Part shown: positions 2,820-64,000 of the stretch, piece after piece | Layout: each line of letters starts with the position of its first letter | How positions within the stretch are numbered: the stretch's first letter is position 1 | Origin: Rhodospirillales bacterium | Lineage (GTDB): Bacteria > Pseudomonadota > Alphaproteobacteria > MPNO01 > UBA2964 | Direction of reading: 5' to 3' | DNA length: 64,000 nucleotides | Assembly: GCA_038120295.1 (NCBI GenBank) | Contig: JAYOLL010000001.1 | Span: 205,140-269,139, forward strand | Position numbers and translations under genes: made by a program | The notes under the pieces: generated by a model | The model's input: the letters and a program-made list of their open reading frames with translations, nothing else | Database searches by the model: none | What the model was told of the DNA's origin: nothing

Positions 2820-2939
2820 AAATTTACCTCCTGTTCAGGGCGGGCGACATCTTCTGCCCGCCCGTGGCCGGGAGATTAGCAATGCTAAGCCGTCGGGCCA
2901 ATGGCGAATTTATGGCGGAAATCGGGCGATTGATTGCGG

Positions 2940-3680
2940 TTAGTGGCGATTGCCGAGGTCTCGTAACTCTTTCAGAACCGGCATGTCTTCGATATCCCGC
3001 TCCGTCAGGCAGGACCAGTCTATTCCGGCAGGGGCCGGAAGAGGGGAGGCGATTTCGAATGCGCCCTGCGGCGTCGCAATGGCGGAGAGCGGCAGGTCGG
3101 TTGGTTCGGACGGAAAATCGCCGACCAGACCGATATCGTGTACGGTCGTGGCGACCGGGACGGCGCGATGGCCGAGTTCGCGCAGGATGGCGAATTCGAT
3201 GTCGCTATAGCCTTCTCCCTTGCCGCAGCGCTTTCCGGCGCGCGTGACCGCGACGGAGCCGGCAACGATGGCGTCGACCTGCGGCATATCCTCGAGGGCG
3301 ACCAGTTCTCCCCATTGTTCCGAGCTCGATAGCGCTGCGGCCTCGTTGAACTTGTCCGGCGGAAGGCGGGCAGGATCGAATTTCCTGAATCCCGCCTTGA
3401 GTCTCGGCGTCGGCATGAAATAGGTGATGCCGCGGCGCAGGGCTTCGACGCGTACCGGCTTTTGCGGAGAATCGGGGTTTATTTTGAGAAGCTTCGCATC
3501 GCGCCAGGGCGGCAGCGTGAACAGATGCCTTGCTGCCGCTTCCGCCCCCTTGAAGTTGGGAATACGGCCGCGCACGGGAAAGGGGAAACGCGCCAGTTTT
3601 CGTTCGGTCAGAGCTTGCCAGATTGTCTCGCGGGCGTCGGCTTTCGATTTGAATTTCCGGTCGCCGAAATCGTCGCTCAT
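2940..3680 (-). CDS. 5-formyltetrahydrofolate cyclo-ligase family protein
   Basis: 246 aa from the internal ATG at 3680, which forms an ATGA overlap with the stop of the upstream gene. The longer ORF to 3842 would overlap that gene. 5-FCL-like N-terminus (KSKADARETIWQAL) and Gly-rich core. Confidence 0.55.
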   Translation of the reverse strand: MSDDFGDRKFKSKADARETIWQALTERKLARFPFPVRGRIPNFKGAEAAARHLFTLPPWRDAKLLKINPDSPQKPVRVEALRRGITYFMPTPRLKAGFRKFDPARLPPDKFNEAAALSSSEQWGELVALEDMPQVDAIVAGSVAVTRAGKRCGKGEGYSDIEFAILRELGHRAVPVATTVHDIGLVGDFPSEPTDLPLSAIATPQGAFEIASPLPAPAGIDWSCLTERDIEDMPVLKELRDLGNRH

Positions 3681-44343: not shown

Positions 44344-44685
44344 ATCATGCCTTCCAAGGAAGATCCCGGACGCGGTTATCATGATATTGGCGGACTCGAT
44401 GCCGGGTCCATCCCGCTTGAAACGACGGACATGAAGCCGTGGGAGAAGCTGTCGACCGCTATCAGCAATGCTCTTGGCGCGGGGGGACGGGGTTATTACG
44501 TCACGGACGAATCAAGGCGCGCGCGCGAACAGATGGGCGATCCACCCTATAGCGATCTTGGATATTTCGAACGCGCAACAGAATCGATGAAGATGGTGCT
44601 GATCGAGAAGGGACTGTTTTCATCCGAAGAGCTCGAATCTCGGATGAAGGAAATCGAACAGCGTATGGCAGAGGCGCGCAAATGA
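44344..44685 (+). CDS. Nitrile hydratase beta subunit, N-terminal half (SCNase-beta/ToyK-like split subunit)
   Basis: 113 aa. HDIGGLDAGSIP matches the NHase-beta N-terminal HDLGG motif. Its stop overlaps the next ATG (ATGA). Confidence 0.7.
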   Translation: MMPSKEDPGRGYHDIGGLDAGSIPLETTDMKPWEKLSTAISNALGAGGRGYYVTDESRRAREQMGDPPYSDLGYFERATESMKMVLIEKGLFSSEELESRMKEIEQRMAEARK

Positions 44686-44966
44686 GTGCGCTCTATCAGG
44701 CTGGCGATCGGGTGAGGGTCATTGCGACCAACCCGCCCGGTCATCGAAGGACGCCATACTATATTCGCGGCAAGGTGGGCGAAGTCGAACGGGTGTGCGG
44801 CGCGCATCCGAATCCGGAGGAACTCGCTTACGGATTCGATGGCCTGCCGGCGAAGATGCTCTATCGTGTCCGGTTCAAACAGAAAGAGGTCTGGGATGCC
44901 TATTCGGGACCCGAGACCGATACGGTCGATGTCGACATCTACGAACACTGGCTTCGTCCAGCGTAA
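44682..44966 (+). CDS. Nitrile hydratase beta subunit, C-terminal half (SCNase-alpha/ToyL-like split subunit)
   Basis: 94 aa. GDRVRVIATNPPGHRRTPYYIRGKVGEVERV...YRVRF...VDVDIYEHWLRPA matches the NHase-beta C-terminal barrel. Confidence 0.7.
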   Translation: MSALYQAGDRVRVIATNPPGHRRTPYYIRGKVGEVERVCGAHPNPEELAYGFDGLPAKMLYRVRFKQKEVWDAYSGPETDTVDVDIYEHWLRPA

Positions 44967-44983
44967 TTCAGAGGAGATTTGAA

Positions 44984-45682
44984 ATGGCTGCTGACGAACG
45001 CGGACATCAACACGACCATGGTCATGATCACGATCATGACCACGACCACGAACATCCGCACGATCATGACCGGACATTCCAGCCCGATATCGAAGACGAG
45101 CCGCCCGGTCGCTACGAACTGATGACCTATGCGATCCGCGAACTGCTGATCGAGAAGGGTAATCTGACCGGCGAAGAAATCCGCAAGGCCCAGGAAAAGA
45201 TCGATAGCTGGGAAGTATCCCAGGGCGCCCGGATCGTTGCTCGCGCCTGGACCGACCCGGATTACAGGAGCCGCTTGCTGGAGGATGGCAATTCCGCGAT
45301 GGCGGAGTTCGGCATCGAACCCGGCGGAGCCAAGATGACGGTGGTCGAAAACACCGACAAGGTTCAGAACGTCATCGTCTGTACGCTGTGCTCCTGCTAT
45401 CCGCGTGCAGTTCTCGGCCTGCCGCCGGACTGGTACCGTTCGAAAAGCTATCGCTCTCGCGTCGTCGTCGAGCCACGCGAGGTGCTGAAAGAGTTCGGCA
45501 CCGAGGTTCCCGATGACATGGCGGTCAGGGTTCACGACAGCCTGGCGGATCTGCGCTATCTGGTGCTGCCGCGACGGCCGGAAGGAACGGAAGGCTGGAG
45601 CGAGGAACAGCTCGCCTCCATCGTAACGCGCGATACCATGGTCGGCGTTGCCAACCCCGTTGCGGACGCCTCCAAGAGCTGA
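44984..45682 (+). CDS. Nitrile hydratase alpha subunit, Co-type, with an N-terminal poly-His/Asp extension
   Basis: 232 aa. Metal site VIVCTLCSCYPRAVLGLPPDWYRSKSYRSR (the Thr/Tyr variant of cobalt enzymes). Residues 8-29 read HQHDHGHDHDHDHDHEHPHDHD. GGAGA RBS upstream. Confidence 0.85.
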   Translation: MAADERGHQHDHGHDHDHDHDHEHPHDHDRTFQPDIEDEPPGRYELMTYAIRELLIEKGNLTGEEIRKAQEKIDSWEVSQGARIVARAWTDPDYRSRLLEDGNSAMAEFGIEPGGAKMTVVENTDKVQNVIVCTLCSCYPRAVLGLPPDWYRSKSYRSRVVVEPREVLKEFGTEVPDDMAVRVHDSLADLRYLVLPRRPEGTEGWSEEQLASIVTRDTMVGVANPVADASKS

Positions 45683-45694
45683 TCGGTTCCACCT

Positions 45695-48034
45695 ATGCCC
45701 GACGATCTGATCGGCGTCTCGCGTCGCCGGCTTGAAGATTACGACCTCCTGACCGGCAATGCGTCCTTCGTCGACGATCTGCGGCTCGACGGCATGCTGC
45801 AGGCAGCCTTTGTGCGCAGCGCCCATGCTCACGCGACTATAGGAACCGTCGATCTGTCGGCTGCGCGCGCCGCGCCAGGCGTTGTCGCCGCATACGCGAT
45901 CGACGATCTGGCTGACGTGCTGACACAGGACCGCATTCCCGAAGGGTTTCCCAAGCCGGGTCTGCGCAATGAGGTCGGTCCATACGTTCTGGCGCGTGAC
46001 GAGGTCTGTTATGTCGGCGAACCCATTGCAGTCGTCATCGCCGACACACGGTACCGGGCGGAGGACGCGGCGCAGCTTGTCGAAGTCGAGTACGACCCTC
46101 TGCCGGCAGTCGGAGACCCCCGCGACTCTGCGGCAGACGGCGCTTCGGTCGTCAACAGGCGTAGCGGCGAGAACACCGTCGGGCGCTACGCGCTGGAGAC
46201 CGGCGATGTCGATGCGGCCTTCAACACCGCCGCTCATGTCGTAAAGGCGAAGCTGCGCCAGCATCGCGGGTGTTCGCTGCCGATGGAATGCCGGGGCGTT
46301 GCGGTACGCTACGATCCACGCCGCCGCAAGCTTACGCTCTGGAGTTCCAACCAGGCGCCGCATTCGCACAAGAGCATCATCGTTTCCCTGTTCGGGCTTT
46401 CGGAAGGCGATGTGCGGGTCATCGTACCGTCGGTCGGCGGCGGGTTCGGGCCCAAGCTGCTGTTCTACCCTGAGGATGCCTCCGTGACCGCTGCGGCGAT
46501 CAAGCTCGGCCGTCCGGTAAAGTGGATCGAGGATCGGCGCGAACATCTGATGTGCACGACCCAGGAACGCGACCAGTTCTGGGACGTCGAAATGGCTGCT
46601 GATACGGAAGGTCGCGTGGTCGGATTGCGCGGCACGCTCTGGCATGACCAGGGCGCCTACACGGCTCGCGGCACCAACATTCCGTTTTCTTCAGCCACCA
46701 CCATTCTCGGTCCCTATATCATCCCGACCTACCGGATGAATGTGGTGATCGCGCATACCAACAAGGTTCCGGCAACATCGATGCGGGGCGCGGGCCATCC
46801 CCAGGGCTGTTTCACGATGGAGCGGCTGCTCGACCGGCTGGCCGTGGCGACCGGGATCGACCGGGCGGAAATCCGCGTGCGCAACATGATCCGGCCCGAG
46901 CAGATGCCTTACGAACATCCGCTTCGTACGCAGGCGGGACAGCGGATCATCTATGACAGCGGCGACTATGCGAAATGCCAGGCGGACCTGCTGGACGCGA
47001 TGGATTACGACGGGTTCGCGGCGCGTCAGCGGGCGGCGCGGACCGAGGGCCGTTATCTGGGCATTGGCATCGCCAACTATGTGAAGCCGACGGGGCGGGG
47101 TCCGTTCGAAACCGGGCTGGTGCGCATCGGCACCTCGGGCAAGGTGATGGTCTATAGCGGCGGCGTCGCGATGGGGCAGGGGTTCCATACCGCCATGGCC
47201 ACCATCGCGGCCGAACAGCTGGGCGTCAGTCCCGACGATGTCTCCGTTGTGGCGGGGGATACTGACGGGGTGCCGCGCGGCATAGGCGGGTTCGCCAGCC
47301 GGCTGACGGTCTGCGCCGGTTCGTCGGTTCACCTCGCGTCGGTAAAGCTGCGCGAAAAAGTCCTGGCGATCGCGGCCAACCTGCTGGAAGCCTCGGCCGA
47401 GGACCTGGAACTGATCGATGGCAAGGTGTTCATCAAGGGGGTGCCGGGGATCGAGGTGTCGTTCAGCCAGGTCGCGCAGGCGGTGGCGGGGATGCCGGGA
47501 GTCTCTCTGCCCGAGGGGATGTCCCCCGGACTTGAGGCAGACGCGAGTTTTCAGCCGGAGAACGTGGTCTACGCCAATGGCGCGCATGCGGCGGAGGTGG
47601 AAATCGACCCCGACACCGGGCGCATTCGCCTGCTGCGTTACGTGGTCGTGCATGACAGCGGCCGGCTCATAAACCCGATGATCGTCGACGGTCAGGTGCA
47701 GGGCGGCGTCGCCAACGGACTCGGCAATGCCTTGTTCGAGGAAATGATGTTCGACGACGACGCGATGCCGCTCTCGACCAACCTGGCCGAGTATCTGGCG
47801 CCCACCGCGCCGGAACTGCCGAATTTCGAGATCATCCATCAGGTCTCGCCGACCGACCGAAACCCCATCGGCGTCAAGGGCGTCGGCGAATGCGGCGTTA
47901 TGTCCGCCGCCCCGTCCGTCCTGTCGGCTATTGAGAACGCGCTGGACGAATTCGGCGTGACCCTGGACTCCCATCCGGTTACGCCCATGATGCTCGTCGA
48001 AAAGATCAATGAACACCGCAACAGGGAGAAGTAG
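45695..48034 (+). CDS. Xanthine dehydrogenase/aldehyde oxidase-family molybdopterin-binding large subunit (orphan, second copy)
   Basis: 779 aa. MPDDLIGVSRRRLEDYDLLTGNASFVDDL N-terminus, GGGFG, MoCo-domain motifs. 12 nt after the NHase alpha stop. Confidence 0.85.
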   Translation: MPDDLIGVSRRRLEDYDLLTGNASFVDDLRLDGMLQAAFVRSAHAHATIGTVDLSAARAAPGVVAAYAIDDLADVLTQDRIPEGFPKPGLRNEVGPYVLARDEVCYVGEPIAVVIADTRYRAEDAAQLVEVEYDPLPAVGDPRDSAADGASVVNRRSGENTVGRYALETGDVDAAFNTAAHVVKAKLRQHRGCSLPMECRGVAVRYDPRRRKLTLWSSNQAPHSHKSIIVSLFGLSEGDVRVIVPSVGGGFGPKLLFYPEDASVTAAAIKLGRPVKWIEDRREHLMCTTQERDQFWDVEMAADTEGRVVGLRGTLWHDQGAYTARGTNIPFSSATTILGPYIIPTYRMNVVIAHTNKVPATSMRGAGHPQGCFTMERLLDRLAVATGIDRAEIRVRNMIRPEQMPYEHPLRTQAGQRIIYDSGDYAKCQADLLDAMDYDGFAARQRAARTEGRYLGIGIANYVKPTGRGPFETGLVRIGTSGKVMVYSGGVAMGQGFHTAMATIAAEQLGVSPDDVSVVAGDTDGVPRGIGGFASRLTVCAGSSVHLASVKLREKVLAIAANLLEASAEDLELIDGKVFIKGVPGIEVSFSQVAQAVAGMPGVSLPEGMSPGLEADASFQPENVVYANGAHAAEVEIDPDTGRIRLLRYVVVHDSGRLINPMIVDGQVQGGVANGLGNALFEEMMFDDDAMPLSTNLAEYLAPTAPELPNFEIIHQVSPTDRNPIGVKGVGECGVMSAAPSVLSAIENALDEFGVTLDSHPVTPMMLVEKINEHRNREK

Positions 48035-48583
48035 ATGCCGCGGATCGACCCCATCGATATGGACAACCTGACAGAGGAACAGAAGGCCGTCGCCGCCAAG
48101 ATTGTTTCCGGGCCGCGCGGCGAAGTTCGCGGACCGTTCCGTGTGCTGATGCACAGCCCCGAACTGGCCGATGCGGTTCAGACCATGGGAGCCTATGTGC
48201 GGTTTAATGCGGAACTGCCCTGGAAGCTGCGCGAACTGGCGATTCTCGTAACAGCGCGTCACTGGAACTGCTCCTACGAGTGGTTTGCGCACGAAAAGGA
48301 GGCTCAGAAGGCCGAGCTGGACCAGGGCATTATTGATGCCATCCGAATTCGCGAGAAGCCGAACTTCACTGAGGAAGCGGAAGAGGAAATCTGGAATTTC
48401 TGCACCGAGTACTACGCCAACACCAAGGTTAGCGACGCGACCTTCCAGAAGATCATCGACCGGCACGGCAAACGGGGCGCGGTCGACCTCGCCGGGCTGC
48501 TCGGCCATTACAATGCCATTGCGGCGACGCTGAATATCTTCCAGGTGGAAGTGCCGGACGGATCGTCGCCTTTGCCCGATTAA
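48035..48583 (+). CDS. Carboxymuconolactone decarboxylase-family protein
   Basis: 182 aa. Its ATG abuts the stop of the Mo-hydroxylase gene. HWNCSYEWFAHE AhpD-like helix motif. Confidence 0.7.
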   Translation: MPRIDPIDMDNLTEEQKAVAAKIVSGPRGEVRGPFRVLMHSPELADAVQTMGAYVRFNAELPWKLRELAILVTARHWNCSYEWFAHEKEAQKAELDQGIIDAIRIREKPNFTEEAEEEIWNFCTEYYANTKVSDATFQKIIDRHGKRGAVDLAGLLGHYNAIAATLNIFQVEVPDGSSPLPD

Positions 48584-49488
48584 GTCGTCCGGTACTGACG
48601 GGCGACCAGCCAGACGCCGGCGACGACCATTGCGGTTCCATACAGGTGGAACGGCTGAAGCGTCTCGTTCAGGAAAAAGATGGCGAGCGCCGATCCGAAG
48701 ACCGGATGCAGGTTCATGAAGGATGATGTCCGGTTGGGACCGATCCGGACGATGCCCTGATTCCAGCAGGCCCAGGCGACGATCGTACTGAACAGGGCGA
48801 CATAGACGAGGCTTCCCGCCATCGTCGGCGTCAGGCTCATGACGGCGCCGGTGGCCAGTTCCGCGGCGTATGCCGGAACCAGCCAGATCGTTCCGCTGAT
48901 GCACAGCACGAAGAGCAGGGTCCAGGGCGACACCCTGATGCCCGCCCGCTTGAACAGGACCGTGTAAAGCGCCCAGCAGATCACGGCGAGAAACATGTAG
49001 AGATCCCCCAGCCGGATATCGAGCGCCCTGAGAACGGCGATGTCGCCCCGCGCGACGACGAATGCTATGCCGATGAACGAGAGCGCGATGCCGGTCGCCT
49101 GCCAGCGATTGATCAGCTCGCGCAGGATCAGCCAGGAAAAGAACACCGCAACCACCGGAACGCCGGCGTTTATAAGGGCGGCGTTGATCACGGTCGTGTG
49201 CTGGACGCAGAAATAGACCAGCGTATTGCCCACGACGAAAAGGAAGCTCAGCGCGGGGATTGAGCCCGGATTTTCTCTGATCTGAGGCCAGTCGCGCCGC
49301 AGCGCCGGGATGACGAAGGGCAGAACCATGGCGGCGGCCAGCGCGTGCCGCCAGAAAGACAGCGCCACCGGCGGCACGTCAAGATTGGCGAGCCGCGCCA
49401 CGATGAAATTCCCGGCCCAGCACAGAATCGCAAGCGAGCAGAGCGCATACGCGGTTGTCTGCGCCGCGCCGGAATTCTGGTCTGACAT
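48580..49488 (-). CDS. DMT superfamily (EamA-like) transporter
   Basis: 302 aa from ATG 49488. Two EamA repeats, 10 predicted TM helices. Confidence 0.75.
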   Translation of the reverse strand: MSDQNSGAAQTTAYALCSLAILCWAGNFIVARLANLDVPPVALSFWRHALAAAMVLPFVIPALRRDWPQIRENPGSIPALSFLFVVGNTLVYFCVQHTTVINAALINAGVPVVAVFFSWLILRELINRWQATGIALSFIGIAFVVARGDIAVLRALDIRLGDLYMFLAVICWALYTVLFKRAGIRVSPWTLLFVLCISGTIWLVPAYAAELATGAVMSLTPTMAGSLVYVALFSTIVAWACWNQGIVRIGPNRTSSFMNLHPVFGSALAIFFLNETLQPFHLYGTAMVVAGVWLVARQYRTT

Positions 49489-49612: not shown

Positions 49613-50479
49613 CTAGAACGTCGCGCCGGACTCCAGCCAGGCGTCGACGATTTCCTCGCCGGTGGCGAACCACACATCGTCGTGGCCCTTGATGTAATCC
49701 AGCGCCGATTCGAGCGCCCAGATCCGGTGCGAGACGCCGATTACGAATGGGTGCAGGCAGATCGCCATCACTCGACCGGATTCAGCGCCCTCCATGTAAA
49801 GACGGTCGAACTGCCGCCGCATCATCAATTCGAACTCGTCGCTCGATTTGCCGGTGCGGAACTGCGGGAGATCGTTGATCTCGGTCGAGTAGGGGAGCGA
49901 CACCATTTTTCGGTCGCCCGCGTCGATAAAATAAGGCTGGTCGTCATTGACCCAGTCGCACACGTAATCGAGGCCCTCACCGGCCAGATAATCCAGCGTA
50001 TGCCAGGTCTCCTGCAAGCCGGACCCAAGCCAGCCGCGCGGCTTTCGGCCAGTTGTCTGCTCGATCCGGGCGAGTGTGTCGCGTACCAGCTTTTCGTCGC
50101 CTTCGGGCGGGGTTTCATGAAAAGGCCGCGAGTTGCTCTGGTTGTGACCGAGAAACTCCCAGCCGAGCGCCATCGCGTCTTCCATGATCTCCGGGTAGAC
50201 GTCGCAGACCTCGGAGTTGAGCGTGACCGACGCCCGTATGTCGCGCGACGACAGCGCGTCCATGATGCGGAATACCCCGATCCGCGCCCCATAATCGCGC
50301 TGTGACCAGGAGGAAACCTCCGGGACATGGCCGCGCGAGCCCGGCACCACCTCGTTCAGCGGGAAGAACTCGATATTAGGGATCACCCAGACGGCGACAC
50401 GCGCGCCGTTGGGCCATTTCAGGGTCGGTCGCCGGTTGATCGGCGTGTAGGGAAAAGGCCCGTAGCGGCGCGGCTCCAT
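49613..50479 (-). CDS. Polysaccharide deacetylase-family (PuuE/allantoinase-like) hydrolase
   Basis: 288 aa from ATG 50479 (MEPRRYGPFPYTPINRRPTLKWPNGARVAVWV). NodB-like His/Asp motifs (LGHNQ, CLHPFVIG). Confidence 0.7.
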   Translation of the reverse strand: MEPRRYGPFPYTPINRRPTLKWPNGARVAVWVIPNIEFFPLNEVVPGSRGHVPEVSSWSQRDYGARIGVFRIMDALSSRDIRASVTLNSEVCDVYPEIMEDAMALGWEFLGHNQSNSRPFHETPPEGDEKLVRDTLARIEQTTGRKPRGWLGSGLQETWHTLDYLAGEGLDYVCDWVNDDQPYFIDAGDRKMVSLPYSTEINDLPQFRTGKSSDEFELMMRRQFDRLYMEGAESGRVMAICLHPFVIGVSHRIWALESALDYIKGHDDVWFATGEEIVDAWLESGATF

Positions 50480-51186
50480 CAGACGACCTCTTTCAGCCCG
50501 GCGGAGCCGAGCAGCTTCTGGACCACCTCGCCTACATGCATGACGTCGGCGTATTTGTGGTGCATGTCGAACAGGTTCACCTTGTGCGACAGTTCGCTGC
50601 GGTCGAAACAGCATTCCTCGGCCAGAGTAACGTGAATGCCGTTGGAGTAGGCGTCGACGACGGATGCACGGACGCAGCCGGACGTGCTTTCCCCGCACAC
50701 AATCAGGCTCTGGACGCCCATTTGGTGAAGCTGGGCAATCAGCGGCGTACCGTAGAACGCGCTGGCGCGCTGCTTGTAAACAATTAGGTCTCCTTCCTGA
50801 GGCGCGAACTCTTCCTTGATCTGCCAGACATCGTCTGATTTCGGCTTGTTCTGGCGCGAGGTGGCGTAGGCCTTGCCGACATTGGCTTCGGTGCGGGCTT
50901 CCGTGGTCGAATAGATGACAGGAATGCCGACCGCCCGGGCCGCCTTGAACAGGCGTTCAGTCGGCTCGATGGCGTTCCAGGCGTTCTCGCCGCAGGAGCT
51001 GGGGAATTCGCCCATCAGGTCGTGTACCGGCTTTGAACCGCCCTGATAGGCAAGCTGATACAGGTCGATAGCCAGCAACGCCGGCTTTTCGCCGATATAG
51101 GTTTCACGCTCGTAGGCGCTGTAAATATCGAGGACCTTGGGGTCGACGATGTCCTGCCAGCAATGATCTTCGAATTTCGACACCAT
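50479..51186 (-). CDS. Isochorismatase-family cysteine hydrolase (amidase-like)
   Basis: 235 aa from ATG 51186 (MVSKFEDHCW). Catalytic Cys in LIVCGESTSGCVR. Its stop overlaps the next ATG by 1 nt. Confidence 0.75.
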   Translation of the reverse strand: MVSKFEDHCWQDIVDPKVLDIYSAYERETYIGEKPALLAIDLYQLAYQGGSKPVHDLMGEFPSSCGENAWNAIEPTERLFKAARAVGIPVIYSTTEARTEANVGKAYATSRQNKPKSDDVWQIKEEFAPQEGDLIVYKQRASAFYGTPLIAQLHQMGVQSLIVCGESTSGCVRASVVDAYSNGIHVTLAEECCFDRSELSHKVNLFDMHHKYADVMHVGEVVQKLLGSAGLKEVV

Positions 51187-51304
51187 GGAGAAAACCTTTC
51201 CTTGCCTGATTGAAACGTAGACACAGGATATTGCAGCGCGGTTCGCGCGGCAACGACGGGGCTGTGACCTAAAAGGGGAAATGGGCCTGAAAAGCCGCTG
51301 GCTC

Positions 51305-53995
51305 CTAGGTCGACTGGTCGGCGGGGCGTCCGCGCAGTTCGGCCACCACGCGGACGAATTCTCCCTCGAGTGCATCGAACAGCGCGTCGGCGTTATCGAT
51401 GACATGTTCGGCGCTCATCTGTTCGAGTTCTTCACAGAGCTTCGGAAGGCTCAGGGCGCCGAGGTTCGCGCTGGCGGATTTGAGCTTGTGTGCAGCGAAC
51501 TGGGCCGCCGCGACATCCCGGTTCTTCAGGGCGGTTTCGATCTCATTCACCGTGTCCGGCGCCGTCCGCAGATAAACGTCCGTAATCTTTCGCAGCAGTT
51601 CCGCCGAGAAGCCGGAAGGAGGAGCGCCTACAGCGGGACCGTCCGTCGGCTCACTATCTATCGGCCCATCGTCATCCTGCAATGCTGACGGGGCCGGGGA
51701 AGCGGTGCTGGAACATTTGTATATCTTTTCGAGCAGATCGACGGGATCGAACGGTTTGGAGGCGTAGTCGTTCATTCCTGCCGCGAGATACTCCTCCCGG
51801 TTCCCGGCCATGGCATTGGCGGTAAGCGCAATGATCGGCGTGTCGCAGCCCAGAGTGCGTATCGCCCTTGTCGCGGATATACCGTCCATTACGGGCATCT
51901 GTATATCCATCAGGATCACGTCATAAGCGGCGTTGCGAACCGCCGCTACCGCTTCCTGGCCGTTCTGCGCAACGACGACGGTGTGACCGGCTTCCTGGAG
52001 CAGCGCGATGGCGATTTCCTGGTTCACCACGTTGTCTTCGGCGAGCAGAATTATCCGGGTCGGGGACACATTACCCACATTCGTTGCACTTTCGCGGAAT
52101 CCAACCGCGCCAGGGTCCGCTACAATCCGCTTTGCGGGTTCGCAGAGGACCGTAAACCAGAAGGTCGAACCTTTGCCCGGTACGCTGTCCACGCCGATGT
52201 CGCCGCCCATCAAACGCGTCAACTCCTGGCATATCGCGAGTCCGAGACCGGTGCCGCCGAACTCCCGTGTCGTCGAGGTATCGGCCTGCGAAAATTTCTC
52301 GAAGATCGTTGCCGTCTTGTCGGGACCGATCCCGATCCCGGTATCGGTAACTTCGAACCGGACAAGGAGACTGCCGTCCGCCGTATCCATGTGCGAGACG
52401 GCAATGTTGATGCCGCCGCGCTCGGTGAACTTGATCGCATTGCCGACAAGGTTGAACAGCACATGTTTGATACGACCGAAATCGCCGCTCAACGTCTCCG
52501 GCGTACCGGGCGCGATGGTTACTCGGTAGTCGACGCCTTTCTCGTGCGCCCGCGATTTCATCAGCGCGCCGACTTCGTCGATCAGCCGGGAAAGCGGAAA
52601 ATCTACACGTTCGAGATCGAGTTTCCCGGCTTCGACCTTGGAGATATCGAGTATGTCGTTGATAAGGCTGAGAAGCGCCTCGCCGGACTGCCTGATGCGC
52701 GAGGCGTAATGTCGCTGTTTTTCGTTCAGCCCGGTTTTGAGAAGCAGGTGCGCCATGCCGAGAAGACCGTTCATCGGCGTCCGTATTTCATGACTCATCG
52801 TCGCCAGAAATTCGGATTTGGTCTGGCTGGCCTGTTCGCCCTTTCTGGTTTCAAATTTGAGGGCCCGCGTTCTCTCTTCAACGCGGTTCTCGAGGTCGGC
52901 GTTGAGCGCTGTCAGCTTGCGCTCGGACCACTGTATTTCCTGCATCTGCAGCGCGAGCATATCTTCTCTCGACTGCAGGGCGTCGGCCATATTGTTGAAC
53001 TCGCTCGCAAGATCTCCCAGACCGTCCCGGTCCGGTATCTCGATCCGCCCGGTCAGGTCGCCGGAACTGATCCGGCGCGCACCTTCCGCTACCAGCCGGT
53101 GCCTCTGCGATATTTTTCTCGGGAGGAAAAATGACAGGTAGAGGATGATTGCTCCCCCGGTCAGCCCCAGTAAGACGAATAATATCTGATCGTTGTTCGC
53201 GTTTTCGATCAGTCGGGACTGGTACGCGTTGAAGTTCTTTTCCAGCTTCGTTGAAAGAGACCGGATCTGGCGACGGGCGTCGATTTCTTCGCGAAATACC
53301 TCCTTGCGAATGTCGTCCAGGCTTGTACCGCTGAGTTCCTGCTGGATCGCATCGGCATAGGCAAACAGGCTCGCCCGATAGCGAAATAGCGGCGTCAGAC
53401 CGGCAACCGCGGTTTCTTGCAGACCGAGTTGCCGCATCAGGCCGTCGTGTTCGTGATCGTGGTGATTGTGGGATTTTTTGTCGCCAAGATGATCGCGGAA
53501 CCATGTCAGTAGCCCAATGCTTTTTTCGACCGGCGCGAGGACATCTGCTACAGAATGTCGGGGGCGCTCGAAGTACCGGCGAATTTCCTCTTCCACCTGA
53601 AGGAGCGTCTGACTTTTTTTCGAGGCCAGGTCAGAAAACGCGATCGACCTGGCGCCGCGGGCCACGAACCCGTTAAAAGCAGTGCGAAAAATCGCCAGTG
53701 ACGTGATGGTTTCTTTCTGCAGCTGGTTCGCCGTGTCCGACGAAGGGTCGACGGCTTCTTCCTGGAGATAGGCGCTAAAAGCTGAGATTATTCGATCCGA
53801 TTTCAGGGCGGGGCTGTTGCCGGACGGGAGTGGTTTCGGCTTTAGGGCAGATGCGCCGTTACCGGCGATCTGTAATTCGATGCGTCTCAGTTCAGAGAGC
53901 GAATCCTGGATGTTTCCCGGCGTCAGGTCCCGGTACGCATCCATCTGCCTGAATTCGACCGCCGACTTTGAAATCAGACTGTCTACGCGCGTCAA
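51305..53995 (-). CDS. Hybrid sensor histidine kinase (periplasmic domain-TM-HAMP-HisKA-HATPase-REC-HPt), as annotated from a TTG start; N-terminal TM helix apparently severed
   Basis: HisKA H-box ([13 protein letters not shown]), N/G1/G2 boxes. REC ([14 protein letters not shown]...[14 protein letters not shown]). C-terminal HPt ([12 protein letters not shown]). The upstream in-frame codon 54068-54070 is TAG. Confidence 0.8.
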
Positions 53996-54067
53996 TGCTT
54001 CGCGCGCGGGCGTGACGACGGTTACGTTCGTGACAAGGAGGTCGTTAAGGCCGCGCGCGTGAAATAT

Positions 54068-54142
54068 CTAGAATCCAATGACGAGAAGCAACAGCGCCGC
54101 GACGGTCGCGAAGCCGAGCCGGCAAAGGACTGTTACAGACAT
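54068..54142 (-). other. 24-codon ORF encoding a single TM helix (MSVTVLCRLGFATVAALLLLVIGF), in frame with and directly upstream of the sensor kinase; separated only by an amber stop
   Basis: ATG 54142 to TAG 54068-54070. The reading frame continues, without any further stop, into the kinase ORF. Confidence 0.4.
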
Positions 54143-54170
54143 CCGGCTGCTCTTTCCCGCGTCTTCTGAC

Positions 54171-55088
54171 TCAATCGAAGCGGAACGTCAGCAGTTCCGT
54201 TATTTCGCCGGAACCGAACAGGGGCTCCTGTATCTTCGGGTTGGGGCGGCGTCCCGCAATTTCGAATCGGGATACCCCGAAAGCATACTGCCGCCCCGGA
54301 TCCAGCTGGATATCGTCGGAATTGCCGGTTTTAAGCTTGCGGGCGAACTCCACCGTCCACCGGCCGTCCTTCCATGTTCCCTTTGCACGGACGTCGGCCC
54401 GACTGCCGGTAGGGGCGGAAAGGGCGAATAGCGGGGTACGGTCGCCGCGATGCTGGGCCTGGATCTCGGTACGATAGGCGGAGCCGCCGCTGTCGCCCGG
54501 CCGCGTCAGGTAATATCGGGTCCCGTTGCGCGACAGGAGTTTTTTCGCTTTTGGCGACCTGATCGTCGAATAGACATGCATCTTGTCGTCAGCAAAACCC
54601 GCATGGTCGGTCCGGTGCGACTTCCAGTACCAGATATCCGCCCGATAGGAATTTTCCGCATCGATGCGGAGGTCCACCGGAAAAGCCTCCATGCTCCATT
54701 TCAGAACGAACGTATCTTCCCGGTCGGGACCGATACGATAGCGTTTCTGGTCGGGTACCCATACCAGTGTCTTGTGATCGCGGTTCTCGGATCGGTCCGG
54801 GAATGTCGCCAATATGTACACATGGCTCTTCGTGTATACCGAGCGGATTTCAAGCTGCGTTTTCGCCAGGGGTTCGAAAGTCGTCAGGGACGCCGCTTTG
54901 GACCATGCCGAATCCGTCGCCTTGCCGTCAATGACTGGCGGGTCTGTGACCTGTACCGCCGTCAGCGTTCTCGAACTACGGTCCGTAGCGGCAGCCGGTA
55001 ACGAAAAAAGAAGGGCAACAAACGAAACGAAGACGACAGGTGCAGAATTTTTCACGACCGATCCAGTTAATTTAGCCGAAGCAGGCAT
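54171..55088 (-). CDS. Periplasmic DOMON/CBM9-like domain protein
   Basis: 305 aa from ATG 55088. Signal peptide (SAPVVFVSFVALLFSLPAAA). VIDGKATDSAWSKA motif typical of the EB-dh/DOMON-like fold. Directly upstream of the kinase, on the same strand. Confidence 0.45.
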   Translation of the reverse strand: MPASAKLTGSVVKNSAPVVFVSFVALLFSLPAAATDRSSRTLTAVQVTDPPVIDGKATDSAWSKAASLTTFEPLAKTQLEIRSVYTKSHVYILATFPDRSENRDHKTLVWVPDQKRYRIGPDREDTFVLKWSMEAFPVDLRIDAENSYRADIWYWKSHRTDHAGFADDKMHVYSTIRSPKAKKLLSRNGTRYYLTRPGDSGGSAYRTEIQAQHRGDRTPLFALSAPTGSRADVRAKGTWKDGRWTVEFARKLKTGNSDDIQLDPGRQYAFGVSRFEIAGRRPNPKIQEPLFGSGEITELLTFRFD

Positions 55089-55292
55089 CAGGCCCCGGGC
55101 GATTAGCAAAATATCCTCGTGGTCGCACAATCGTTTGCGTTCTTGCCGGGACCCTGCGCAACCCGCCAATACCATGGCCGGAAACAGGTTAATAATGAAT
55201 TAAGAAAGATTGCCAGGGCCTGTCGCTCTTGCGATGCCAGACGTCATGGGTTCAAATCTCCGCAATCGATTTCCATCCGACGGGAGAGTTTC

Positions 55293-56264
55293 ATGAAGTA
55301 TCGCAAACTTGGCTGCTGCACAGATGACGTATCTGCCATCGGGCTCGGTGGGATGGCGATGACCGCGATCTATGGTCCTGCCGACAAGGGAGAGGCCATC
55401 GCGACGACCCATGCCGCGCTCGATGCCGGGATGAATTTCATCGACACGTCGGATGCCTATGGCGGCGGCGGAAACGAGGAAATGCTGGGCGAGGCGCTGA
55501 AGGGCGGTTATCGCGACAGGGCGTTTCTCGCTACCAAGTTCGGGAATCTGGGCGGCAGCGCCGACGGACGGCCCGAATATGTCGTCGAGGCCTGCGACAA
55601 GAGCCTGTCGCGGCTCGGAATCGACGTCATCGATCTCTATTTCCAGCATCGCGTGGATAGGGACGTGCCGATCGAGGACACGGTGGGCGCGATGTCGAAG
55701 CTGGTAGAGCAGGGCAAGGTCCGCTGGCTCGGCCTGTCCGAAGCCGGCCCCGATACGATCCGTCGGGCGCACGCGACCCACCCTATTGCAGCGCTACAGA
55801 CCGAATATTCGCTCTGGACCCGCTTCGTCGAGACCGATTACCTGCCGCTGCTACGCGAACTCGGCATCGCGCTCGTCGCTTATTCGCCGCTCGGGCGCGG
55901 CATGCTGACCGGCACCATCGACGGGTTCGACAGCCTGGCGGAAAATGATCGCCGCAAGGACCATCCGCGGTTCCAGCAGGGCAATATCGAGGCGAATGTA
56001 GAGATCATCCAGCCCCTCAAGGCCATCGCGGATGAGAAAGGCGTGTCGACCGCGCAGCTTTCCATCGCGTGGCTCCTGGCGCAGGGCGACGACATCGTGC
56101 CGATCCCGGGAACCAAACGGCGCGAGCATCTGATGGACAATATCGCGGCTGTCGATCTGGAGCTCTCGGCCGACGATATCGCGCGAATTGGCGGAGCGGT
56201 TAAAGCCGATGACGTGTCCGGAACGCGCTATCCGGCAGGTCAGCTGCCCGGTCTGGGTATCTAG
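55293..56264 (+). CDS. Aldo/keto reductase
   Basis: 323 aa. IDTSDAYGGGGNEE, LYFQHRVD, and IPGTKRREHL C-terminal signature. GGGAGAG RBS upstream. Confidence 0.85.
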   Translation: MKYRKLGCCTDDVSAIGLGGMAMTAIYGPADKGEAIATTHAALDAGMNFIDTSDAYGGGGNEEMLGEALKGGYRDRAFLATKFGNLGGSADGRPEYVVEACDKSLSRLGIDVIDLYFQHRVDRDVPIEDTVGAMSKLVEQGKVRWLGLSEAGPDTIRRAHATHPIAALQTEYSLWTRFVETDYLPLLRELGIALVAYSPLGRGMLTGTIDGFDSLAENDRRKDHPRFQQGNIEANVEIIQPLKAIADEKGVSTAQLSIAWLLAQGDDIVPIPGTKRREHLMDNIAAVDLELSADDIARIGGAVKADDVSGTRYPAGQLPGLGI

Positions 56265-61995: not shown

Positions 61996-62076
61996 CAGAA
62001 GTACTGCGGTCAGGGCGCCAGCGGGCTGGTCAGGTCGACCTGCTCGGATCGGCGAATGTCAGCTCCCGGGCGCCCG

Positions 62077-63912
62077 TCAGGCGACTTCGGGGGCCTGTCT
62101 GGAACGCCGCTTGCGTTCGACCGGGTCGAGATAGCGCTTTCGCAGCCGGATCGATTTAGGCGTCACCTCGACAAGCTCGTCATCGTCGATATAGGCGATG
62201 GCGCGCTCCAGCCCCAATTTGAGCGGCGGTGTCAGGAGAATAGCGTCGTCGCTGCCGGAGGCGCGGATATTGGTCAGCTGCTTGGTTTTGAGCGGGTTGG
62301 CGTCGATGTCCTGGCCCTTGTTGTGCTCGCCAATCAACATGCCGCAATAGACCTTTTCGCCCGGGCCGATCATCAGTGGCCCCCGTTCTTCCAGGTTCCA
62401 CAGCGCGTATGCGACTGCGTTGCCCTGCTGGGTCGAGATGATGACCCCCTGACGTCGCCCTTCGATGGCGCCGCGGTCCGGCGCGTACTCGTGGAAAATC
62501 CGGTGCATCACGCCGGTTCCCCGCGTGTCGGTCAGGAATTCGCCATGATAGCCGATGAGCGCGCGCGAAGGCGCATGAAACACCAGACGCTGCTTGCCGC
62601 CGCCCGATGGGCGCATTTCCAGCAACTCGCTGCGACGCGCCGAAAGTTTTTCGACGACCACGCCGGAAAATTCCTCGTCAACGTCGATCACGACCTCTTC
62701 GATCGGTTCCGTACGCTTGCCGGTCTCCGGGTCCGTCTGAAACACTACGCGCGGACGGCTGATTGACATTTCGTAGCCTTCGCGGCGCATGGTTTCGATC
62801 AGTACGCCGATCTGCAGCTCGCCGCGTCCGGCGACCTCGTACCCGTCGTCGTTTTCAGTGACCTGAATGGCGACATTGCCTTCAGCCTCGCGCATCAGTC
62901 GATCGCGTATCATGCGCGACGTGACCTTGTCGCCTTCCTGGCCGGCATAGGGAGAATCGTTCACCGAGAAGGTGACGGCGAGTGTCGGCGGATCGATGGG
63001 GCGAGCCTCAATGGGGGCTTCCGAGCCCGGCGCACAGATCGTGTCGGCCACCGTCGTTTTCTGGAAGCCGGACAGGGCGACAATGTCGCCGGCGGCGGCT
63101 TCTTCCAGCGGTACGCGTTCCAGACCGCGGAAGGCGAGAATCTTGGTGACCCGGATTCTCTCGACCGGCTTGCCCTCGCGCGTGACGGCAGAGATAGTCT
63201 CGTTGGGACGAATTTTGCCGGAGGCGATGCGACCGGTCAGCAGGCGTCCGATATAGGGATCTGCTTCGAGCGTGGTCGCCAGCATGCGGAATGGCGCATC
63301 CGCGTCGACCGCCGGTGGCTCGACATGGCTTGCGATCAGTTCGAACAGGGGGGTCAGGCTGTCCTTGGGTCCTTCCGGCTCTTCCGCCGCCCAGCCTTCC
63401 TTGGAGGACGCGTAAAGCGTCGGGAAATCGAGCTGCTCGTCATTGGCGTCGAGCGCTGCGAAAAGGTCGAAAATCTCGTCCAGCACCTCGTCAGCGCGGG
63501 CATCCGGGCGGTCAACCTTGTTGATCACGACGATGGGGTGAAGCCCCTGCGCCAGCACCTTCGACAGTACGAACTTGGTCTGCGGCATTGGCCCTTCGGC
63601 CGCGTCTACGAGAAGGACGCAGCCGTCGACCATGGAGAGTACACGCTCTACCTCGCCGCCGAAATCGGCATGGCCCGGCGTGTCGACGATATTGACCCGG
63701 ATGCCGTTCCATTCGACAGAGGTACATTTGGCGAGGATGGTGATACCGCGCTCGCGTTCCAGGTCGCCCGTATCCAGCGCCTGCGATTGTACAGACTGGT
63801 TGTCGCGAAACATGCCTGACTGCCGCATCAGGCAGTCGACCAGCGTGGTCTTGCCATGATCGACATGGGCGACGATCGCGATATTCCTGAGGGAAGCGGC
63901 GCTGTTTGTCAT
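62077..63912 (-). CDS. typA: Translational GTPase TypA/BipA
   Basis: 611 aa from ATG 63912 (MTNSAASLRNIAIVAHVDHGKTTLVD). G1-G4 motifs (AHVDHGKT, DTPGH, NKVD). Confidence 0.9.
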   Translation of the reverse strand: MTNSAASLRNIAIVAHVDHGKTTLVDCLMRQSGMFRDNQSVQSQALDTGDLERERGITILAKCTSVEWNGIRVNIVDTPGHADFGGEVERVLSMVDGCVLLVDAAEGPMPQTKFVLSKVLAQGLHPIVVINKVDRPDARADEVLDEIFDLFAALDANDEQLDFPTLYASSKEGWAAEEPEGPKDSLTPLFELIASHVEPPAVDADAPFRMLATTLEADPYIGRLLTGRIASGKIRPNETISAVTREGKPVERIRVTKILAFRGLERVPLEEAAAGDIVALSGFQKTTVADTICAPGSEAPIEARPIDPPTLAVTFSVNDSPYAGQEGDKVTSRMIRDRLMREAEGNVAIQVTENDDGYEVAGRGELQIGVLIETMRREGYEMSISRPRVVFQTDPETGKRTEPIEEVVIDVDEEFSGVVVEKLSARRSELLEMRPSGGGKQRLVFHAPSRALIGYHGEFLTDTRGTGVMHRIFHEYAPDRGAIEGRRQGVIISTQQGNAVAYALWNLEERGPLMIGPGEKVYCGMLIGEHNKGQDIDANPLKTKQLTNIRASGSDDAILLTPPLKLGLERAIAYIDDDELVEVTPKSIRLRKRYLDPVERKRRSRQAPEVA

Positions 63913-64000
63913 TTTTTTCCGGAAATTCGGGGGCTTCGGTGCGCCCGATATAGAGGGTTCCCCGCGTCGGTTCAATCAAAACCGGCTGATGCGGAAACTG

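Follow-up and report, generated by a model that had tools for sequence, protein, structure and literature searches.

The subject of this analysis is a disrupted sensor kinase gene in a 64-kb stretch of DNA from an uncultured Rhodospirillales bacterium (the window, to which all coordinates refer unless another contig is named). The kinase gene lies on the minus strand, directly downstream of a gene on the same strand for an EB_dh/DOMON-like protein, and its reading frame is broken at codon 25 by an in-frame amber codon. The window allele is very probably a loss-of-function allele of a gene that this population no longer needs. Judged from the sequences compared, the amber codon arose by a genuine nonsense mutation, a single-base change of an ancestral TCG (Ser25), and the gene is a polymorphic pseudogene in which ordinary decay is removing a dispensable sensor, part of an uncharacterised but conventional module. 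It is also a case of parallel inactivation, with four independent nonsense alleles in one sensor kinase and none in 13 neighbouring genes.

The premature amber codon and the ancestral reading frame

Codons 1-24 of the kinase gene (MSVTVLCRLGFATVAALLLLVIGF; 54071..54142) comprise the start codon ATG 54142-54140 and most of transmembrane (TM) helix 1, as assigned from the sequence, an ungapped N-terminal alignment with 16 homologues, the 28-nt spacing to the EB_dh gene and hydropathy. Codon 25 is TAG (54068..54070), and the window allele therefore has no uninterrupted coding sequence from its native start. Past this TAG the same frame stays open for 920 codons, up to the TAG stop at 51307-51305; the minus-strand sequence and its translation thus bear out what an earlier note on this DNA had described. 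Downstream of the amber codon, the frame first offers a start-type codon at a TTG (53993..53995; sequence and open reading frame (ORF) list), which would give 896 aa, and its first ATG (53942..53944), which would give 879 aa, is where gene callers begin the same allele in contig L001 and in protein P0031. Either product would be without TM1. Kyte-Doolittle hydropathy gives two TM-like peaks, at residues ~3-27 and ~318-341, so that the helix starts are ~315 residues apart with ~290 residues between the two helices. The earlier note had put the second helix about 270 residues later, which is roughly right when counted from the TAG.

Two contigs obtained by exact look-up of the upstream EB_dh protein, L001 (SRR26337538) and L002 (SRR26337545), were assembled independently from other runs and match the window exactly at and around the site, TAG included, with an overall nucleotide identity to the window of 99.94% and 99.92%, respectively. 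The TAG is moreover linked with a synonymous change at codon 23 and with eight missense changes that the three sequences have in common and that mark them as one lineage. A sequencing or assembly error in the window, the second of three explanations offered by the earlier note, is excluded for practical purposes because the same TAG stands in both of these contigs.

Three further contigs (L003-L005), found in a metagenome scan with the sensor domain and sharing 99.6-99.7% nucleotide identity with the window, all read GGG TTC TCG ATA where the window reads GGA TTC TAG ATA. Together with seven loci added later (L092-L098), ten other haplotypes carry TCG at codon 25. TCG is the ancestral codon, and the change at codon 25 is therefore TCG (Ser) to TAG by one base, a single coding-strand C>A at position 54069. 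In the N-terminal alignment of homologues the corresponding residue is Ser in P0001 and Ala in most others. Sense codons are thus found where the earlier note had suggested looking for them, both in near-identical haplotypes and in homologues that keep TM1, and its first explanation, a recent nonsense mutation with pseudogenisation, is the one that the comparison supports.

To find sensor relatives, the 340 residues that follow the TAG were compared exhaustively with 1.84 billion representative proteins (E<=1e-3). The search returned 29 relatives, the best of which is P0001 (940 aa, 43% identity), and in most of them the sensor match starts at about residue 26-29 of the hit. Sixteen homologue N-termini align with window codons 1-24 without gaps and follow a common pattern of M-S-x-T, Gly and a hydrophobic stretch; an N-terminal TM helix of the same length is kept in homologues at 18-43% identity. 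Because codons 1-24 align without gaps to these 16 N-termini, the context of the TAG is beyond chance. The comparison identifies ATG 54142 as the ancestral start and TM1 as an integral part of the sensor family. The possibility that homologues naturally begin downstream and lack TM1, which the earlier note had named as grounds for giving up its proposal, was ruled out, since the opposite was found in the homologues examined: the sole relative called without TM1 is P0005, yet its contig L099 encodes TM1 in frame upstream (2896-3000 of that contig). At this locus CTG occupies the position of the usual ATG/GTG start, and this copy, too, may be decaying or rearranged. L099 also has a 153-aa ORF of unassigned family and a gap of ~300 nt in place of the upstream EB_dh gene.

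Other searches for close copies were negative. Exact look-up of the 879-aa product of the window returned no record, because the window has three private missense changes. A word-index protein search with the sensor domain gave no match, though the gene's own cluster is in the collection searched, which is a limit of that method. Among the GTDB genomes, scanned with the sensor domain, there was no relative, and hence no reference genome with a close copy.

Nonsense alleles and constraint in the population

The 90%-identity cluster of the kinase protein has 30 members. Among the 15 members listed are six distinct intact 945-aa sequences and the 879-aa form of the TAG allele, along with three 241-aa forms, two pairs whose members share a contig (443 aa with 497 aa, and 559 aa with 385 aa) and a second 559-aa form. 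When 13 haplotypes (the window, L001-L005 and L092-L098) were aligned over 18.8 kb, all truncations proved to be single-base nonsense changes, each the only one on its haplotype. Codon 25 is changed from TCG to TAG in the window, L001 and L002. Codon 242 is changed from CAA to TAA in L004, L005, L094, L095 and L096, which come from JGI, ENA and Logan sources. The remaining alleles are a GAA to TAA change at codon 444 in L093 and a CAG to TAG change at codon 560 in L092, the latter matched by the second 559-aa protein record. The kinase is intact in L003, L097 and L098. Across the same 13 haplotypes no nonsense variant was found in 13 flanking genes (5,006 codons), and when the relative opportunity for such changes is allowed for, all four would land in the kinase with a chance of ~9e-4.

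One of the haplotypes with the codon-242 stop, L004, also has a 14-bp deletion (CTATTCGCCCTTTC; window 54418-54431) that shifts the frame of the EB_dh gene. By sequence, then, both genes of the module are broken in this haplotype. Codon 560 (52463-52465) has changed twice independently, from CAG to CAT (Q560H) in the TAG lineage and from CAG to TAG in L092.

Constraint was compared between the kinase and its neighbours in two sets of haplotypes. The unbiased set consists of the six haplotypes found by similarity only (the window and L001-L005) with ten flanking genes; here the kinase has 2 synonymous, 22 missense and 2 nonsense variants, against 14 synonymous and 10 missense in the flanks (Fisher p=1.8e-4). 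With all thirteen haplotypes and 13 flanking genes the counts are 6, 26 and 4 for the kinase and 32, 32 and 0 for the flanks (Fisher p=0.0012), giving a ratio of nonsynonymous to synonymous polymorphism (pN/pS) of 1.64 in the kinase vs 0.33 in the flanks. Kinase variants are scattered over all domains. Changes from GC to AT make up 28 of the 36 kinase variants vs 41 of the 74 flank variants (p=0.035), a spectrum that fits unfiltered mutation pressure in a GC-rich genome (the G+C content of the window is 60.9%). A diversity-generating retroelement or other targeted mutagenesis was considered as the source of the variants and rejected, the changes being spread over all domains and mostly GC>AT, not adenine-specific.

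The TAG lineage itself has 12 private alleles in the 2.8-kb kinase gene vs 4 in 4.2 kb of flanking sequence. Its changes were polarised with six outgroup homologues. A435G, private to the window, replaces a residue that is Ala in 6/6 outgroups; Q560H, in the N-box region, is derived in the TAG lineage at a site that is Gln in 5/5 aligned outgroups; and E529K, likewise derived in this lineage, affects a site that is invariant or nearly so in the outgroups. Taken together, the variants show that the kinase gene behaves as unconstrained in this population. The derived changes at conserved sites argue against a selected product, full-length or restarted, from the TAG allele.

The TAG allele might still yield a working kinase if translation restarted at TTG 53995 or ATG 53944, giving an 896-aa or 879-aa kinase without TM1 that would be, for example, constitutive or cytoplasmic. 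This is improbable. The 920 codons after the TAG are open with H451, D746 and H885 kept, and gene callers do annotate the 879-aa form; against this, TM1 is conserved in every homologue examined, neither restart codon is preceded by a clear Shine-Dalgarno sequence, and A435G and Q560H, at conserved transmitter residues, point to an absence of purifying selection on the product. A promoter and terminator scan of 53800-55500 found nothing and so gave no hint that a restart product has its own promoter.

Even less credible is decoding of the TAG, whether by programmed readthrough, an amber suppressor tRNA or pyrrolysine, such that the full-length kinase would be made. Regulated readthrough was the third explanation in the earlier note. 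The intact downstream frame is what speaks for it. However, TAG is a common stop here, ending 18 of 55 greedily chosen ORFs of the window, the kinase gene among them. The TAG codon is also not conserved, near-identical relatives having TCG; of the three further nonsense alleles, those at codons 242 and 444 are TAA, and the lineage that carries the TAG has decayed at conserved sites. Scans of the 64-kb window for tRNAs and Rfam families found no tRNA and no RNA family, and thus no local suppressor tRNA or recoding element. We therefore regard readthrough as unsupported.

Adaptive loss is a different matter, as it would refine the conclusion that the window allele is a loss-of-function allele. 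Under it, losing the kinase would confer an advantage, or be favoured while rare, and independent knock-outs would rise repeatedly, as in covS, gacS or lasR. We consider it possible though doubtful. Four independent nonsense alleles are seen on an otherwise open gene where a neutral expectation that allows for a 4-fold GC>AT bias gives ~0.8-1.0 (P ~0.008-0.02), with none in the 13 neighbouring genes; assemblies of three separate origins carry the codon-242 allele; and in the unbiased six-haplotype set the kinase pN (0.0112) is 2.2-fold the pooled pS (0.0052; odds ratio 2.2, p=0.02). On the other side, look-ups by truncated proteins inflate the nonsense count, kinase pN in the 13-haplotype set is not significantly greater than pS (p=0.12), and a GC>AT-rich spectrum with missense changes over all domains is what neutral decay predicts. 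A more specific version, in which recurrent positive or frequency-dependent selection switches off an undescribed EB_dh-coupled module, draws on the four stop alleles and the L004 frameshift and is more speculative still. If true, metagenomes alone would have revealed a 'regulator-loss' polymorphism in an uncultured bacterium living in the wild.

Several points limit this reading of the window allele, its population and its module. The accessions SRR26337538 and SRR26337545 are close in number and possibly belong to one study, so the TAG allele could be local. The 13-haplotype comparison of kinase pN with pooled pS has an odds ratio of only 1.49, short of significance as given above, and this sample was deliberately enriched for truncated proteins, which biases the test for an excess of nonsense alleles upward. 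Low-level readthrough or a restart product from the TAG allele may occur. Lastly, the EB_dh gene is absent upstream in two of the six other homologue loci examined, L099 (P0005) and L100 (chemoreceptor P0027).

The intact kinase, its sensor domain and the EB_dh-family partner

The intact 945-aa kinase would have its N-terminus inside, followed by TM1, a periplasmic sensor of ~290 aa, TM2, HAMP, HisKA, HATPase, receiver and Hpt. This architecture of TM1, periplasmic sensor and TM2 was anticipated in the earlier note and agrees with the hydropathy peaks, the Pfam domains and the TM1 of homologues. The sensor domain spans codons 26-318 (53189..54067, minus strand), is all-helical and has no Pfam family. 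TM helix 2 (codons 319-341; 53120..53188, minus strand), assigned from the hydropathy peak at 318-341 and the sequence, is followed by basic residues. The cytoplasmic transmitter (51305..53098, minus strand) has an open frame throughout and contains HAMP, HisKA with H451 in the motif MSHEIRTP, HATPase_c, a receiver with the phosphorylatable D746, and Hpt with H885. HisKA (78 bits) and HATPase_c (99.2 bits) are both above their Pfam cut-offs, and Response_reg (97.2 bits), Hpt (47.4 bits) and HAMP were also found. With both HisKA/HATPase_c and receiver/Hpt present the protein is a hybrid (unorthodox) histidine kinase of the TorS/BarA/ArcB type, and for its transmitter half the closest relatives are TorS and BarA. 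Among the NCBIfam models TorS (TIGR02956) matches best, at 453.7 bits vs a cut-off of 676.5, with an alignment that covers residues 292-810 only; since it scores under the cut-off and leaves the sensor unaligned, a TorS equivalog was ruled out.

An AlphaFold model of the sensor built with 24 homologues is a confident prediction made up of helices only (predicted local distance difference test (pLDDT) 87.8, predicted template modelling score (pTM) 0.75). A Foldseek search of the PDB with this model gave no significant full-length match (E<=0.001), and the structural matches obtained each align only 116-142 of 340 residues. A His-rich loop, HNHHDHEHD (codons 225-233; 53444-53470), lies in a lower-confidence region of the model. 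Comparable loops are confined to the nearest homologues (P0001, P0003 and P0005) and are not family-wide, and the loop may be a site of metal or haem contact. The same sensor domain is found on plain kinases, hybrid kinases, the chemoreceptor P0027 and the 1,148-aa P0017, whose C-terminal part is GGDEF-EAL-like by eye only. Occurring on such varied output proteins, it is therefore a modular input domain, and a rare one, with 29 representatives among 1.84 billion proteins.

The gene upstream of the kinase (54171..55055, minus strand) encodes a 294-aa EB_dh/DOMON-like protein with a signal-peptide-like N-terminus (MKNSAPVVFVSFVALLFSLPAAA), as assigned from Pfam, homologue loci and synteny. EB_dh (PF09459) matches this ORF with 70.9 bits vs a cut-off of 33.3 over model positions 29-224 of 236. 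The longest ORF is 334 aa from ATG 55175, while several contigs have it called as 294 aa from GTG 55055, with a canonical signal peptide. Weak matches were seen to CBM9_1 (E 0.0036), and to TIGR03477 (the haem b subunit of type II dimethyl sulfoxide reductases) and NxrC (7b04_C), the latter two far below significance.

A gene for an EB_dh protein of ~300 aa lies upstream of the kinase in four of the six other homologue loci examined (those of P0001, P0003, P0004 and P0006), with a spacing of 28-30 nt compared with 28 nt in the window. The earlier note had paired the kinase with the upstream DOMON-like protein; this holds at these four loci and not at L099 and L100, whose lack of the gene rules out a family-wide pairing. 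Among the loci compared, EB_dh pairing accordingly marks the closer subfamily, not the whole sensor family. Identity among the partner proteins is 58-63%, whereas the sensor domains are only 25-43% identical to that of the window. All aligned partner proteins begin with a signal-peptide-like segment, and in an alignment of five sequences Met159 and several Lys are invariant. The pairing of the closer members with so strongly conserved an EB_dh/DOMON-like protein suggests an unstudied periplasmic co-sensor arrangement.

Several features around the module were noted in passing. At the homologue loci of P0003 (L007, 9108-10292) and P0004 (L008, 8402-9580) a 392-394-aa REC-HisKA-HATPase_c protein comes immediately after the hybrid kinase and overlaps its stop. 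At the corresponding position the window has an isochorismatase-family gene; its ORF (50479-51405, 308 aa) overruns the 3' end of the kinase gene, and in related contigs it is called as 235 aa with a start at 51186. With 0 synonymous and 5 missense variants in the 13 haplotypes, the EamA-family transporter gene (48580-49488, minus strand) stands alone among the neighbours in having a share of missense changes that is clearly raised. Genes for nitrile hydratase beta and alpha, located via the gene calls of L097, lie within 44347-48034 next to a CMD-family gene, and are adjoined by a molybdopterin-binding xanthine-dehydrogenase-family gene (45695-48034, plus strand). The TypA/BipA gene (62077-63975) is 90% identical to the copy in a Rhodospirillales metagenome-assembled genome and ~80% identical to those of several Rhodospirillaceae. 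In the spacer between it and an MFS transporter gene, a 1-bp indel at 62075 sets L092 and L093 apart from the window.

Proposed mechanism and comparison with known systems

In the intact module, we propose that the secreted EB_dh/DOMON-like protein, probably the ligand- or redox-sensing subunit, responds to a cue in the periplasm and makes contact with the helical domain, which TM1 and TM2 hold between them. With an intact allele, TM2 and HAMP would relay the signal and H451 would be autophosphorylated, after which the signal would go on to D746, to H885 and finally to a response regulator. In the window allele, translation from the native start would end after 24 residues. A sensor domain of ~290 aa cannot be exported without TM1, and a protein restarted at TTG 53995 or ATG 53944 would have no signal-anchor helix, so that its sensor would be kept from the periplasm and from the partner. 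The window allele is thus most likely without a functional product, to judge from its sequence. Because the kinase gene behaves as unconstrained, the module would seem to be dispensable in this population, or even costly, and to be undergoing loss piecemeal. For annotation this means that the 879-aa or 896-aa ORF is a remnant of a 945-aa gene and should be flagged as disrupted, not described as a cytoplasmic kinase.

Recurrent natural loss-of-function alleles of a sensor kinase are known for GacS in Pseudomonas. For CovS in group A streptococci, one report (PMC10470059) describes CovRS mutations as frequent among invasive strains. As with the CovS and GacS losses, several independent inactivating mutations of one kinase occur here among near-identical conspecifics. 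The present alleles differ in being known only from metagenome assemblies of an uncultured bacterium, and they may represent neutral decay.

The EB_dh family is known for the haem b subunits of molybdoenzymes such as ethylbenzene dehydrogenase and type II dimethyl sulfoxide (DMSO) reductase. In the gamma subunit of ethylbenzene dehydrogenase a Met/Lys pair ligates the haem b. The upstream protein shares with these haem b subunits a PF09459 match above the cut-off, but its gene adjoins that of a sensor kinase, not those of catalytic molybdoenzyme subunits. Literature searches aimed at DOMON-linked kinases gave no account of this module, the only precedent being the fused domain of PghK. In this kinase of Shewanella oneidensis a DOMON-like CBM9 module is the periplasmic sensing element (bioRxiv 10.1101/2023.05.05.539549). 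PghK thereby provides a precedent for a DOMON-type beta-sandwich, and the partner described here shares with it a weak CBM9_1 match. However, the PghK module is fused into the kinase, whereas here it is a separate secreted EB_dh-family protein that accompanies a kinase with its own helical sensor. That sensor, at ~290 residues, also differs from the four-helix-bundle sensors of LytS-XylFII, Adeh_2942, Tar/Tsr and NarQ, which are single bundles of 120-145 residues. As a two-protein arrangement of a kinase with an EB_dh-family partner, the module is broadly analogous to TorS/TorT, the trimethylamine N-oxide (TMAO) sensor in which a hybrid kinase works with a periplasmic partner.

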